Virus record (IMG/VR): IMGVR_UViG_2695420412_000015
Strand: one strand, 5' to 3'
Source: a virus
Lineage: Duplodnaviria; Heunggongvirae; Uroviricota; Caudoviricetes
Length of the DNA stretch: 7,115 nt
The translations under genes and the position numbers were made by a program. The notes under the pieces are model-generated. The model made no database searches. It was not told the DNA's origin and worked only from the letters and a program-made list of their open reading frames with translations. The stretch's first letter is position 1. Each line of letters begins with the position of its first letter. Shown piece by piece: positions 1-4,555 of the stretch.

Positions 1-189
1 GGTGTGTCATACACCACGTCAGCGGTGGGGACGGGATACTGGTTACTGCAGCTGCTGGACAAAGTCTCTCCGTCCCAGTGGGTGGCAATAGGTGTACTGG
101 GGAGTCTGCTGTTTGGCCTGCTGACGTATCTGACTAACCTGTATTTCAAAATCAGGGAGGACCGCCGTAAGACGGCGCGGGGAGACTAA
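1..189 (+). CDS. S: Pinholin (phage 21 S-like holin), 5'-partial at window edge
   Basis: The translation ...[51 protein letters not shown] closely matches the C-terminal two thirds of phage 21 pinholin S21 as I remember it. The ORF is open to position 1, so the true start lies upstream of the window. Stop TAA at 187..189. A pinholin is the expected partner of the SAR-type endolysins downstream. Confidence 0.8.
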
Positions 190-193
190 AGCG

Positions 194-1183
194 ATGAAGA
201 AAAAATACGAACTGGTTGTTAAAGAGATAAATAATTACCCGGATAAGATTGCTGTTACTGTGGCACTTGAAATTGGCGGGCATCCGTCGTTGTTGTTGCC
301 ACATGTGGCGATTAGTCTTGACCGTACTGAAGGTGCCACGCTGGAGTTCTACGAAGCTGAGGCGAAAAAACAGGCGAAGCAGTTTTTCATGGATATTGTT
401 GCCGGGTTATGCGAAGGGGATGAACCGTCACCGGAAAAGCGCCCCGTAATTTTAGATGCGCAGGATGTATTGATAACCTACAAAGGAAAGCTACCGGGAA
501 GAATTACTTGTTCTCTGAAGATGCCGCCGTCAACACTGCGGTCAGAAAAAGATGATGTTGAATCGCGTATTGAAAAACTGGAGTGCTATATCGCTGAATT
601 GAAAAAAAGCACCCCAACAAAAAATGAGGTGCTTGCAGCAGACGAAATGAAAGAAGCTATTCCTGATCGCGCGGCGAATCTAAGCTGCGCTTCATGGTTG
701 AAAGAGCATCTTCAGCAGCCTGAAAAAAAACGCCGCGATGAGCAGTTTGCTGCGTTTTACGATTATTGCCGGAAAGTGATGAGCAGAAATCTCGCAGAGT
801 GTTTCAGTATTCATAATGATAATTTCAGTGACCTGGAATGGGAGTGTAACCGGCCATCCTTTGTTGTATCCGGTGATGCTGGGAAAATAACCATCTCAGA
901 AAATGGAAAAGTAACACCGCCATCGCACCAGCATAGTGAGGAGCTCATTGAATTTGCCATTGATTACCTGAAGAACAATAAAAAGCAGGGGCTGATGAAG
1001 TGCATTGGTCGTTGCATGGGATATCTGCAGATAGCTGCTGAGATTGAAGCGCTGGCCAGTGGTGCGGACAAGGATGCAGTTGTGCGGGAGGCTCTTCTTC
1101 GTGATTTTGATAATCCGCCCTTTAAAAAAGTGCCGGCTTACTGGTTTCATCCAGGACTGACTTATCTTAAAGGACGTATATAA
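194..1183 (+). CDS. 329-aa ORF: N-terminal DUF1327-like domain (residues 1-109) fused in frame to a ~220-aa C-terminal domain of unknown function
   Basis: ATG at 194, five nt after the holin stop. Residues 1-109 are co-linear with the 110-aa copy-B protein (2064..2396) and resemble the small protein family found beside lysis genes in lambdoid prophages (I recall this as YdfR/DUF1327; family name from memory, unverified). From codon 110 (ATG 521..523) the ORF continues through sequence absent from copy B to TAA 1181..1183. A 990-nt open frame is unlikely by chance; the only antisense ORF (896..1150) is short. Translation of the C-terminal part alone from ATG 521 (220 aa) is an alternative gene model. 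Confidence 0.7.
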   Translation: MKKKYELVVKEINNYPDKIAVTVALEIGGHPSLLLPHVAISLDRTEGATLEFYEAEAKKQAKQFFMDIVAGLCEGDEPSPEKRPVILDAQDVLITYKGKLPGRITCSLKMPPSTLRSEKDDVESRIEKLECYIAELKKSTPTKNEVLAADEMKEAIPDRAANLSCASWLKEHLQQPEKKRRDEQFAAFYDYCRKVMSRNLAECFSIHNDNFSDLEWECNRPSFVVSGDAGKITISENGKVTPPSHQHSEELIEFAIDYLKNNKKQGLMKCIGRCMGYLQIAAEIEALASGADKDAVVREALLRDFDNPPFKKVPAYWFHPGLTYLKGRI

Positions 1184-2972: not shown

Positions 2973-3065
2973 GCAGAATATTTTGCTGAAAAATGCGGTT
3001 TGCTCACACGGGCGGATAACACGAAATCCTGCGAACTGGCAAAAACTAAGTGAATAAAAGTAAAA

Positions 3066-3100
3066 CCCCGTTTGTTGGCCGCAAGCGGGGTTTTGTGTTT
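3066..3100 (+). terminator. Rho-independent terminator-like hairpin, copy B
   Basis: Stem CCCCGTTTG (3066..3074), loop TTGGCCG, stem CAAGCGGGG (3082..3090), then TTTTGTGTTT (3091..3100). The stem is identical to copy A; the loop differs by one base. Confidence 0.55.
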
Positions 3101-3130
3101 CCTGACTCCGGAAAAGTCAAAGGAGAAAGT

Positions 3131-3268
3131 GTGTTTGATTTTAGCAAACTGATTCGGGAGATTCGAATGATGGCTGAAAAATTATCCACCTGGAAGTTCA
3201 TCCTTATCTGGCTGGTGTTTGTGATTATGGCTTCCGGTTATTTCATTGGTCAGATACGCTGGTGGTGA
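3131..3268 (+). CDS. Small single-pass membrane protein ORF (45 aa from GTG 3131; 33 aa from ATG 3167), copy B
   Basis: AGGAG at 3121..3125 lies 5 nt before GTG 3131; GGGAG at 3156..3160 lies 6 nt before ATG 3167. Translation ...MMAEKLSTWKFILIWLVFVIMASGYFIGQIRWW*; stop TGA 3266..3268 is immediately followed by the Rz ATG at 3270. The track ORF starting at 3050 would run through the terminator hairpin, so I prefer a downstream start. Confidence 0.45.
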   Translation: MFDFSKLIREIRMMAEKLSTWKFILIWLVFVIMASGYFIGQIRWW

Positions 3269-3269
3269 A

Positions 3270-3737
3270 ATGAACCGCGTACTGTGCGTGGTCATCATTG
3301 CCCTGCTGGTGGCCTGTGGTGCGCTTAGTCTGGGGCTGAATCATTACCGTGATAACGCCATAACCTACAAAGAGCAGCGCGATAAAAAAGTCAGTGAGCT
3401 GGAGCTGGCAAATGCAACCATTACTGATATGCAGGTGCGCCAGCGCGATGTTGCTGCGCTCGATGCAAAATACTCGAGGGAATTAGCCGATGCGAGAGCT
3501 GAAAATGAAACTCTGCGTGCTGATGTTGCCGCTGGTCGTAAGCGCCTGCGGATCAACGCCACCTGCTCCGGTACCGTGCGTGAAGCCACCGGCACCTCCG
3601 GAATGGATAATGCAACCGGCCCCCGACTGGCAGACACCGCTGAACGGGATTATTTCACCCTCAGAGAGCGGTTGATGACAATGCAGAAGCAACTGGAAGG
3701 GGCACAGGACTATATCCGCACTCAGTGCCTGAAATAA
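3270..3737 (+). CDS. Rz: Rz i-spanin (inner-membrane spanin subunit)
   Basis: [40 protein letters not shown]...[31 protein letters not shown]...[35 protein letters not shown] is co-linear with lambda Rz as I recall it ([20 protein letters not shown]...[19 protein letters not shown]). I place the start at ATG 3270 rather than the track's 3246, matching the lambda Rz N-terminus. Confidence 0.9.
   Translation: [155 protein letters not shown]
3490..3675 (+). CDS. Rz1: Rz1 o-spanin (outer-membrane lipoprotein spanin subunit), embedded in the +1 frame of Rz
   Basis: MRELKMKLCVLMLPLVVSACGSTPPAPVPCVKPPAPPEWIMQPAPDWQTPLNGIISPSESG parallels lambda Rz1 (..LPLVVVGC...CVKPPPPPAWIMQPPPDWQTPLNGIISPSERG). 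It has a lipobox (VVSAC) and a proline-rich body. Lying wholly inside Rz in another frame is the classic arrangement. The true start may be the internal Met (MKLCV...). Confidence 0.85.
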   Translation: MRELKMKLCVLMLPLVVSACGSTPPAPVPCVKPPAPPEWIMQPAPDWQTPLNGIISPSESG

Positions 3738-4087
3738 GTTTTGTTGATGCGCCGTATCGTCGCTGTATTCCCTCATTAACAGAGACCGCAGCCCGACAGG
3801 GAGACTCCTCTGCGCGAGTGTGCGGGGATAATCAAAAACGATACACACCGGGGTTTACCGCGTTAACGGAGCGCGGCGTTGTCCCCTCATAGTCGCCTGT
3901 CCGGTGCGATGGTGGAAGAAGCCGGATGTTTATCACTATTAATTGATGACACAGAAATGGATTCATTGAATTTCAGCACGTTTTTGTATTCGTGTTATTG
4001 AACATCTGTTTATTTTACTTTTAACATATTGATAATAAAAAGAGCTGTAAATCTTTAGATGAGTCGATTTTGTCCGGGGAAGTTCAA

Positions 4088-4237
4088 ATGGATTTTATGC
4101 TGACGGTTTCTGGTGTGGTTATCCTGTCCATTGCTTATACTGCAGATAAATATGGCTGCCATTTGTTATCACGTATTGGCGCTTATTGTTCGTTGATGCT
4201 GATTTTCTCGTCGCTTTTTTTTATTTTTTTTGAGTAA
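4088..4237 (+). CDS. Hypothetical 49-aa hydrophobic peptide ORF (not in the supplied track, below its length cutoff)
   Basis: ATG 4088 is preceded by GGGGAAG with a 5-nt spacer. My manual translation is MDFMLTVSGVVILSIAYTADKYGCHLLSRIGAYCSLMLIFSSLFFIFFE*. It is strongly hydrophobic, AT-rich, ends in a T-run, and has atypical codon usage, so it may not be a real gene. Confidence 0.2.
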   Translation: MDFMLTVSGVVILSIAYTADKYGCHLLSRIGAYCSLMLIFSSLFFIFFE

Positions 4238-4369
4238 GTTATATTAATTATAACAAATAATTTTCTGTGTTATTTTTTCAGGCTATCCCGTCAGAGGGGA
4301 AGCCTGTACTGCCGGGGAGCGAATGGAAAACTGATGTGTCCGGTAACTGCGTGTTCTGTGAACACCATG

Positions 4370-4555
4370 TTACTTAATTATGTAATTCATACCCGAACTC
4401 TCTGTTGACAGCCTTCTTCTGCAGGCTTCAATAACCCACGCTGAAAAGTTTCCTGAACCTTTCAGGTCAAGAGCGATGTTAATTTGTTCAATTATCTGGT
4501 TTGGAAATCGGATGTTGCGGGTTGTTGTTCTGCGGGTTCTGTTCTTTGATGACAT
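4370..4555 (-). CDS. Hypothetical small ribbon-helix-helix-like DNA-binding protein (61 aa)
   Basis: Minus-strand ORF MSSKNRTRRTTTRNIRFPNQIIEQINIALDLKGSGNFSAWVIEACRRRLSTESSGMNYIIK. It has a basic N-terminus, then a beta-strand-like IRFP segment, a helix, a GSG turn and a second helix (NFSAWVIEACRRRL), which is the Arc/Mnt/CopG-type layout. Its position between the spanin genes and a Nu1 homologue recalls small ORFs such as ylcI upstream of nohD in E. coli cryptic prophages (from memory, unverified). No strong Shine-Dalgarno sequence seen. Confidence 0.4.
   Translation of the reverse strand: MSSKNRTRRTTTRNIRFPNQIIEQINIALDLKGSGNFSAWVIEACRRRLSTESSGMNYIIK

Follow-up and report, generated by a model that had tools for sequence, protein, structure and literature searches.

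What is encoded between the holin and the lysozyme gene of this prophage, where one of two copies of a small DUF1327-type gene carries ~0.66 kb beyond base 521 that are missing from the other? An initial annotation, made from the sequence alone, had taken these bases (521–1183) for an inserted module, creating a 329-aa open reading frame (ORF) with an undescribed, cysteine-rich C-terminal domain. The lysis cassette that holds the ORF is of the best-studied type, and to our knowledge no role has been described for anything between S and R; in Stx phages, the timing of lysis sets toxin release. We analysed the ORF in the window, by which we mean the whole 7,115-nucleotide (nt) stretch of DNA under study (IMG/VR virus record IMGVR_UViG_2695420412_000015), and compared it with its relatives in public sequence collections.

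A 329-codon ORF in a lambdoid late region

The prophage is a lambdoid, Stx-phage-like one of E. coli, and the window is its late region, which contains, in this order, the 3′ part of a holin gene, the 329-aa ORF, a lysozyme gene, a short second copy of the DUF1327 gene (copy B), another lysozyme gene, the spanin genes and the small and large terminase genes. The holin part (4–189, plus strand) belongs to the phage 21 S or class II holin family (Pfam PF04971, E 1.3e-28) and is labelled ‘class II holin family protein’ in genomes of identical sequence. Four nucleotides after its stop codon, at an ATG preceded by the Shine-Dalgarno sequence GGGGAG, begins the ORF (194–1183, plus strand), which stays open for 329 codons up to a TAA at 1181–1183. 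The first lysozyme (endolysin) gene follows on the same strand at 1226–1759 (PF00959, E 2.6e-24). Copy B, a 110-aa allele that ends where the first copy (copy A) continues, occupies 2064–2396, again on the plus strand, and the second lysozyme gene lies at 2439–2972, in a unit that lacks a holin. As the initial annotation had proposed, the segment 521–1183 falls inside the Q-dependent late region and adjoins the lysis genes; a scan for promoters and terminators around the gene gave nothing above shuffled expectation.

The long frame is intact, conserved and already catalogued

The 329-codon frame is real. Bases 1–1300 of the window are 100% identical in many complete E. coli genomes, O55:H7 strains among them, and the exact protein is present on at least 999 public contigs, so ORF 194–1183 is not a product of chance. 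The segment 521–1183 is truly coding and is kept across genera: compared with a 296-aa allele, the extension has a Nei–Gojobori dN/dS of 0.29, and compared with a free-standing one, of 0.36, values that imply purifying selection. The whole gene gives a dN/dS of 0.37 overall, which likewise indicates that the 329-aa protein is under purifying selection. The protein is soluble and without a hydrophobic segment, with a maximum Kyte–Doolittle 19-residue mean of 1.09.

The gene was not undescribed, as had been claimed, although no function is assigned to its family. The entire protein (residues 1–329) matches the phrog_1085 profile end to end (1–296 of 296, E 2.5e-180) and differs in nothing from a member of that family, which has no Pfam model for the C-terminal part. 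Its exact sequence carries the database names ‘YdfR family protein’, ‘Phage protein’ (UniProt A0A0K4PT01) and G2583_2458 (E. coli O55:H7 CB9615). In the Stx2a-converting phage Stx2_95, a 990-nt coding sequence (BCI50300.1) is annotated between ‘phage holin’ and ‘phage endolysin’, the same position as in the window, and its product is 97.7% identical over the 220-aa part. With its intact frame, its deposited copies and its dN/dS values, the 329-aa gene is the common, already known full-length form of a catalogued, YdfR-family prophage protein.

RefSeq presents the locus differently. In many genomes, PGAP calls the bases equivalent to 194–529 a ‘YdfR family protein’ pseudogene, ‘incomplete, missing C-terminus’; this call sits on an intact long gene at locus L001 (9194–9529) and is also found at L004, L010, L011 and L012. 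The label stems from comparison with short members of the family; the frame itself is not broken. Of the conserved coding sequence, about 650 nt are left blank, or a fragment of them is called ‘hypothetical protein’, because the family model spans the short N-terminal part only. A common, intact and selected 329-aa gene is thereby mislabelled across RefSeq E. coli genomes, O55:H7 and Shiga-toxin strains included, and defining the C-terminal domain as a family of its own would mend this gap.

Both homopolymer runs listed in the initial annotation, A7 (602–608) and A8 (723–730), are present on the plus strand of the segment, and each is a frameshift hotspot in related genomes. The frame of locus L010 is lost at the A7 run, so that its product ends after 151 aa, and a free-standing homologue (L002) loses its frame at the EKKRRDE codons equivalent to the A8 run; the breaks in the frameshifted versions found elsewhere (L010, L011 and L002) all lie at or near these two runs. 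They could reflect real decay or sequencing errors in homopolymers. Since frameshifted copies exist in some genomes, loss of the gene appears to be tolerated in lysogens.

Head, linker and tail

The N-terminal part of the protein (the head, aa 1–100; 194–493, plus strand) is a DUF1327 (YdfR) domain, scoring 132.1 bits against PF07041, well above the gathering cut-off of 25. Its position is also that of a DUF1327-type gene: the holin ends at 189, the ORF starts at 194 and the lysozyme gene at 1226, as in the essQ-ydfR-rrrQ order of the Qin prophage of E. coli K-12. K-12 YdfR (DUF1327, PF07041, 103 aa) shares this head and slot with the window protein, at 41% identity over aa 1–74; after residue 74, however, it has a different short tail, and it lacks both the linker and the conserved C-terminal domain described below. 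Secondary-structure prediction gives the head three strands and a long helix, and a PDB Foldseek search with a poor full-length model returned weak matches to double-stranded-RNA-binding domains (E ~0.8).

Between head and tail lies a variable, acidic and helical linker (aa 110–217; 521–844, plus strand; pI 5.1), which includes the heptad-like stretch VESRIEKLECYIAELKK. The alignments (A1 and A4) contain many insertions and deletions between alleles in this part, among them a 28-residue piece that only some alleles carry, and a low-confidence model places helices at residues 113–138, 143–172 and 181–203.

The remaining residues form a conserved C-terminal domain (the tail, aa 218–329; 845–1180, plus strand), which is predicted to fold into a three-strand meander with four helices. 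The AlphaFold2 model of the tail, built from a 60-sequence alignment, has a pLDDT of 80.4 and a pTM of 0.72, whereas that of the whole 329-aa protein from 33 close relatives (pLDDT 49) is too poor for use. Seven tail positions (H247, L259, G272, L278, Q279, P309 and K311) are invariant among the 60 relatives, and R273, W317, P320 and Y324 are each kept in 59. The seven cysteines of aa 110–329, the KCIGRC motif and the HQH motif are all present in the sequence, but the idea of a cysteine-rich CxxxC domain did not survive the alignment: Cys270 is Arg in 49 of the 60 relatives, and Cys274 is Cys in only 34, being A, S or T in the other 26. Within HQH, His245 is His in only 28 of 60, and His247 is the invariant residue. 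A cysteine-based metal-binding or redox domain (CxxxC or HxH) was accordingly rejected, neither the cysteine pair nor His245 being conserved among the relatives. Another candidate, that the tail is a second DUF1327 copy, since both parts combine three strands with a helix, was also discarded (hhalign E 0.52).

The tail is as unassignable as had been stated, with no characterised family found by sequence or fold in Pfam, NCBIfam, PADLOC, the PDB or Foldseek searches. Pfam, NCBIfam and PADLOC searches with the 220-aa part and ten relatives gave nothing significant, and sequence and profile searches of the PDB with the tail gave no match. In PADLOC-DB the full protein had no match and the 220-aa part matched only Avs2, at a chance-level E of 0.019. 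Foldseek returned nothing below E 0.13 in the PDB with the poor full-length model, and nothing below E 0.6 among predicted viral structures with the tail model; the fold matches to the tail were generic helical ones, with no specific fold. The conserved tail of ~110 aa thus belongs to no described family, and it has no recognisable nucleic-acid-binding or catalytic motif.

Relatives and genomic slot

Of 5.8 billion proteins searched, those with the module came solely from E. coli and Shigella, where it is either fused to the head (287–333 aa) or free-standing (185–221 aa). When 1.84 billion cluster representatives were searched exhaustively with a profile, only 41 clusters that carry the tail came up, and the distant ones among them are Salmonella enterica prophage proteins. 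In GTDB, with one genome per species, three loci were found by a pattern-based search, which diverged copies may escape. Judged from these searches, the tail family is restricted to prophages of Escherichia, Shigella and Salmonella. Among 83 related loci, ~40 are fused, ~28 free-standing and ~14 fragments.

The Salmonella proteins, ‘hypothetical proteins’ of 225–338 aa (for example, P0125, P0127 and P0166), have the same head-linker-tail architecture as the window protein, to which they are 27–29% identical over 94–98% of the length, with the same invariant tail residues; conservation of the tail in Salmonella extends down to 27–40% identity. Unlike the head of the window protein, their heads fall below the Pfam DUF1327 threshold. 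Their genes also differ in position: they follow Q, which HicAB often accompanies, and precede a holin of a different family, whereas in E. coli the gene comes after the holin. There, whichever form occupies the slot, be it the short head, the fused protein or the tail protein on its own, the holin stop precedes its start by 4 nt, and its Shine-Dalgarno sequence is inside the holin gene. In a third, metagenomic lineage, the holin is of the phage-21 type and the gene lies two genes upstream of it. The one constant across the lineages is that the gene sits near the lysis cassette in the late transcript.

Two further arrangements were observed among the relatives. In Escherichia phage PhiR5_1 (L108, 1671–2306), a 211-aa allele consists of the head and the helical linker without the conserved tail and is followed by a reverse-strand gene, representing a third kind of truncation. 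In four diverged lineages, a conserved gene of ~105 aa (phrog_1853), convergent with the tail-domain gene, comes immediately after the 3′ end of that gene or overlaps it (L013 3652–3966, L008 5807–6124, L104 436–759 and L105 585–902, all on the minus strand), with 22–52% identity between lineages; this gene is missing from the window and from 98 of the 105 loci checked.

Insertion or truncation

Copies A (from 194) and B (from 2064) are collinear through TTCTCTGAAGA (to 521 and 2391, respectively), part there, and rejoin at ~1203 and ~2416, ~25 nt before the lysozyme start. Copy B ends at ACT TAA, giving 110 aa, as first described. Downstream of its stop codon, a visual check for traces of the tail-coding 3′ end turned up only ATCCAGG-like words at ~1152 and ~2400, a similarity too short to count. 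No terminal inverted repeats, and also no flanking direct repeats, were found around 521–1200; an IS or other mobile element was rejected, there being no bracketing repeats and no match to a transposase family, which bears out the initial annotation on this point. The segment had further been described as more AT-rich than its flanks. Its GC content (0.43–0.49) is indeed below that of the lysozyme gene (0.49–0.55) but the same as that of the DUF1327 part (0.44–0.49), so that the segment is not compositionally foreign to its own gene.

The Salmonella relatives bear on the direction of the change. BLASTP aligns them with the window protein in one piece, from aa 6 or 20 to 329, at 27% identity (E 5e-26 to 8e-28). 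This alignment crosses the 109/110 boundary, where GKL-PGRITCSLKMPP faces GKIEPTELSCKMKVAI, and then continues into the same heptad-like helix; the Salmonella N-termini match the E. coli DUF1327 profile by hhalign (E 1.8e-5, probability 78%), although in Pfam they remain sub-threshold (E 0.004). Given a single alignment from head to tail, the fused architecture is old, and truncation is the best reading of the 110-aa copy. The long form is also common: of 5,426 complete E. coli genomes, 781 carry the long junction, compared with 719 for the short one. Insertion of a foreign module or moron, as first suggested, does not fit a head-tail architecture that Salmonella proteins share at 27% identity, boundary included, and the direction is instead probably reversed, an outcome that the initial annotation had itself named. 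Sequence comparison thus identifies 521–1183 as the linker and C-terminal domain of the full-length allele, and copy B is probably a truncated derivative. We consider this anatomical and evolutionary reading, a two-domain protein whose long form is old, to be very likely correct.

Two other readings of the gene were weighed against it. A recent insertion of the module into a short DUF1327 gene, with a chance fusion, or a 220-aa protein translated separately from ATG 521, as the result, would explain why copy B stops exactly where copy A goes on, why ATG 521–523 is in frame, and why free-standing versions of the module exist. We nevertheless regard it as very improbable, in view of the fused architecture and boundary sequence kept in Salmonella, of segment ends without repeats, and of a composition equal to that of the head. 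Nor is the separate 220-aa protein borne out. The Shine-Dalgarno sequence of ATG 521, already noted as weak, amounts to no good one upstream, and in place of Met110, 6 of 15 fused E. coli relatives have one of T, N and S, which makes an internal start at Met110 unlikely; the free-standing versions begin ~10 residues further in than Met110, directly after the holin. Still less probable, and rejected by us, is that the gene is a decaying YdfR pseudogene, as RefSeq has it, whose downstream frame is a non-functional remnant. The PGAP label on 194–529 in many genomes and the versions frameshifted at the A-runs speak for decay; against it stand the 329 intact codons, the same protein on at least 999 contigs, the dN/dS of 0.29–0.36, the conservation of the tail in Salmonella at 27–40% identity with its invariant residues, and a tail that folds confidently in silico.

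Possible functions of the long-form protein

Phage proteins known to bind or modify RNase E and so reshape RNA decay include T4 Srd, phiKZ Dip and T7 gp0.7. In the literature on DUF1327, YdfR and genes between holin and endolysin, our search found only a paper on an RNase E interaction and a passing mention. In that paper, K-12 YdfR bound the N-terminal (catalytic) half of RNase E through its residues 1–72, as seen by two-hybrid assay and co-purification; RNA co-purified with YdfR, and YdfR overproduction had a limited effect on the transcriptome (PMC13232886). The 41% identity of the window protein to K-12 YdfR (aa 1–74) covers exactly this binding part.

As the best explanation of the locus as a whole, we tentatively propose a two-domain late-operon protein that is an RNase E-contacting cytoplasmic adaptor. 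The long-form protein would be made late, together with the holin and the endolysin, and would act in the cytoplasm, where its head, like residues 1–72 of K-12 YdfR in the published work, would contact RNA and/or the catalytic half of RNase E. The linker may oligomerise, and the tail, with its invariant G-R...L-Q helix and P-P-F-K...W..P-G..Y-L tail, would provide a second protein-binding surface. The outcome would be an alteration of host RNA decay late in infection, a mechanism that is drawn by analogy and that we hold to be rather doubtful in itself. The likeness to T4 Srd, phiKZ Dip and T7 gp0.7 is one of analogy only, in that the YdfR head binds the N-terminal half of RNase E; these proteins have no homology to the window protein, and the transcriptome effect of YdfR is small. 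That limited effect of overproduction (PMC13232886) counts against the adaptor, as does a tail that lacks a nucleic-acid-binding or catalytic motif and has only generic helical fold matches. Since the same slot can hold a tail that has no DUF1327 head, RNase E binding by the head cannot be what the function of the tail depends on. The frameshifted copies seen in some genomes, which suggest that lysogens can do without the gene, weigh on the same side. Furthermore, the tight linkage of the gene to the holin stop fits a role in lysis at least as well.

Such a role is the substance of the main rival; the adaptor keeps our weak preference, and the defence, pseudogene and recent-insertion readings are less likely. 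As a cytoplasmic regulator of lysis timing, the protein would be made at a fixed ratio with the holin, bind the cytoplasmic C-terminal tail of the holin or the membrane-tethered endolysin, and delay or sharpen triggering. This would suit a soluble protein, a slot in which 4 nt separate the holin stop from the start of each E. coli occupant, whose Shine-Dalgarno sequence is in the holin gene, and a gene that always adjoins the holin-lysozyme-spanin cassette in three diverged lineages. Precedents exist in T4 RIII and P1 LydB, small soluble cytoplasmic holin antagonists that are encoded beside the holin gene and made late; the window protein is likewise soluble, holin-adjacent and encoded in the late region, but no sequence or profile similarity to either was found, which leaves an analogy only. 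We judge this reading unlikely, however, because the protein has no similarity to annotated lysis proteins in PHROGs or Pfam, the Salmonella gene is 120–800 nt from the holin, sometimes with other genes between, and many prophages have only the short head, or nothing, in the slot. The association with two holin families (PF04971 and PF16080) argues further against a specific holin partner. A gene of benefit to the lysogen or in phage competition (superinfection exclusion, abortive infection or anti-defence), acting in some lineages with a convergent partner, seems more improbable again. The slot resembles the accessory-gene sites of lambdoid phages in its high mosaicism, and four diverged lineages have phrog_1853 immediately after the tail-domain gene or overlapping it; yet that partner is missing from the window and from 98 of 105 loci, PADLOC gave no significant match (only Avs2 to the 220-aa part, E 0.019), and the gene, around which no promoter or terminator of its own was found, lies inside the late transcript and would thus go without expression in the lysogen.

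Lambdoid lysis cassettes might have in this tail a new, lineage-restricted effector domain, which would act alone or tethered to an RNase E-binding YdfR head and control something that has not been ascribed to these cassettes, a prospect that we consider distinctly unlikely. If it were true, one candidate would be a cytoplasmic checkpoint that couples holin triggering to host RNA decay or to the stability of late mRNA, and another a module that acts late and, in some phages, has the convergent phrog_1853 gene as its partner. The long form is a reasonable and cheap target for the study of lysis in Stx phages.

Tandem duplication and other features of the window

The DUF1327 gene, the lysozyme gene, a hairpin and a small membrane ORF form a block that is doubled in tandem between 190 and 3268 (unit A, ~1,870 nt; unit B, ~1,209 nt), with shared parts ~90–95% identical, an estimate made by eye from a pairwise alignment and not a computed value. 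Unit B lacks a holin; at its left junction (2036–2069), the end of the small ORF is joined to the last codons of a holin gene. Neither the 5,426 complete E. coli genomes nor any IMG/VR contig contained this junction, and the best-matching genomes have a single unit, with 2,788 nt where the window has 4,000.

Just 3′ of each lysozyme gene is a strong terminator-like hairpin with a 14-pair stem and a T-rich tail (1850–1882 and again ~3059–3091). Each of the two is directly 5′ of a small ORF with one hydrophobic helix (1883–2059, 58 aa; 3050–3268, 72 aa), and both fall inside the expected single late transcript. A search of the whole window against Rfam gave no RNA family.

The spanin pair (3270–3737 and 3490–3675) is of the nested type, the gene for the outer-membrane lipoprotein (61 aa, with a lipobox-like LVVSAC) lying in the +1 frame of the inner-membrane component. 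Downstream, an AT-rich stretch (3950–4300) contains a 55-aa hydrophobic ORF (4070–4237) and is followed by a 61-aa ORF on the minus strand (4370–4555), whose position matches that of a ‘YlcI/YnfO family protein’ in L001.
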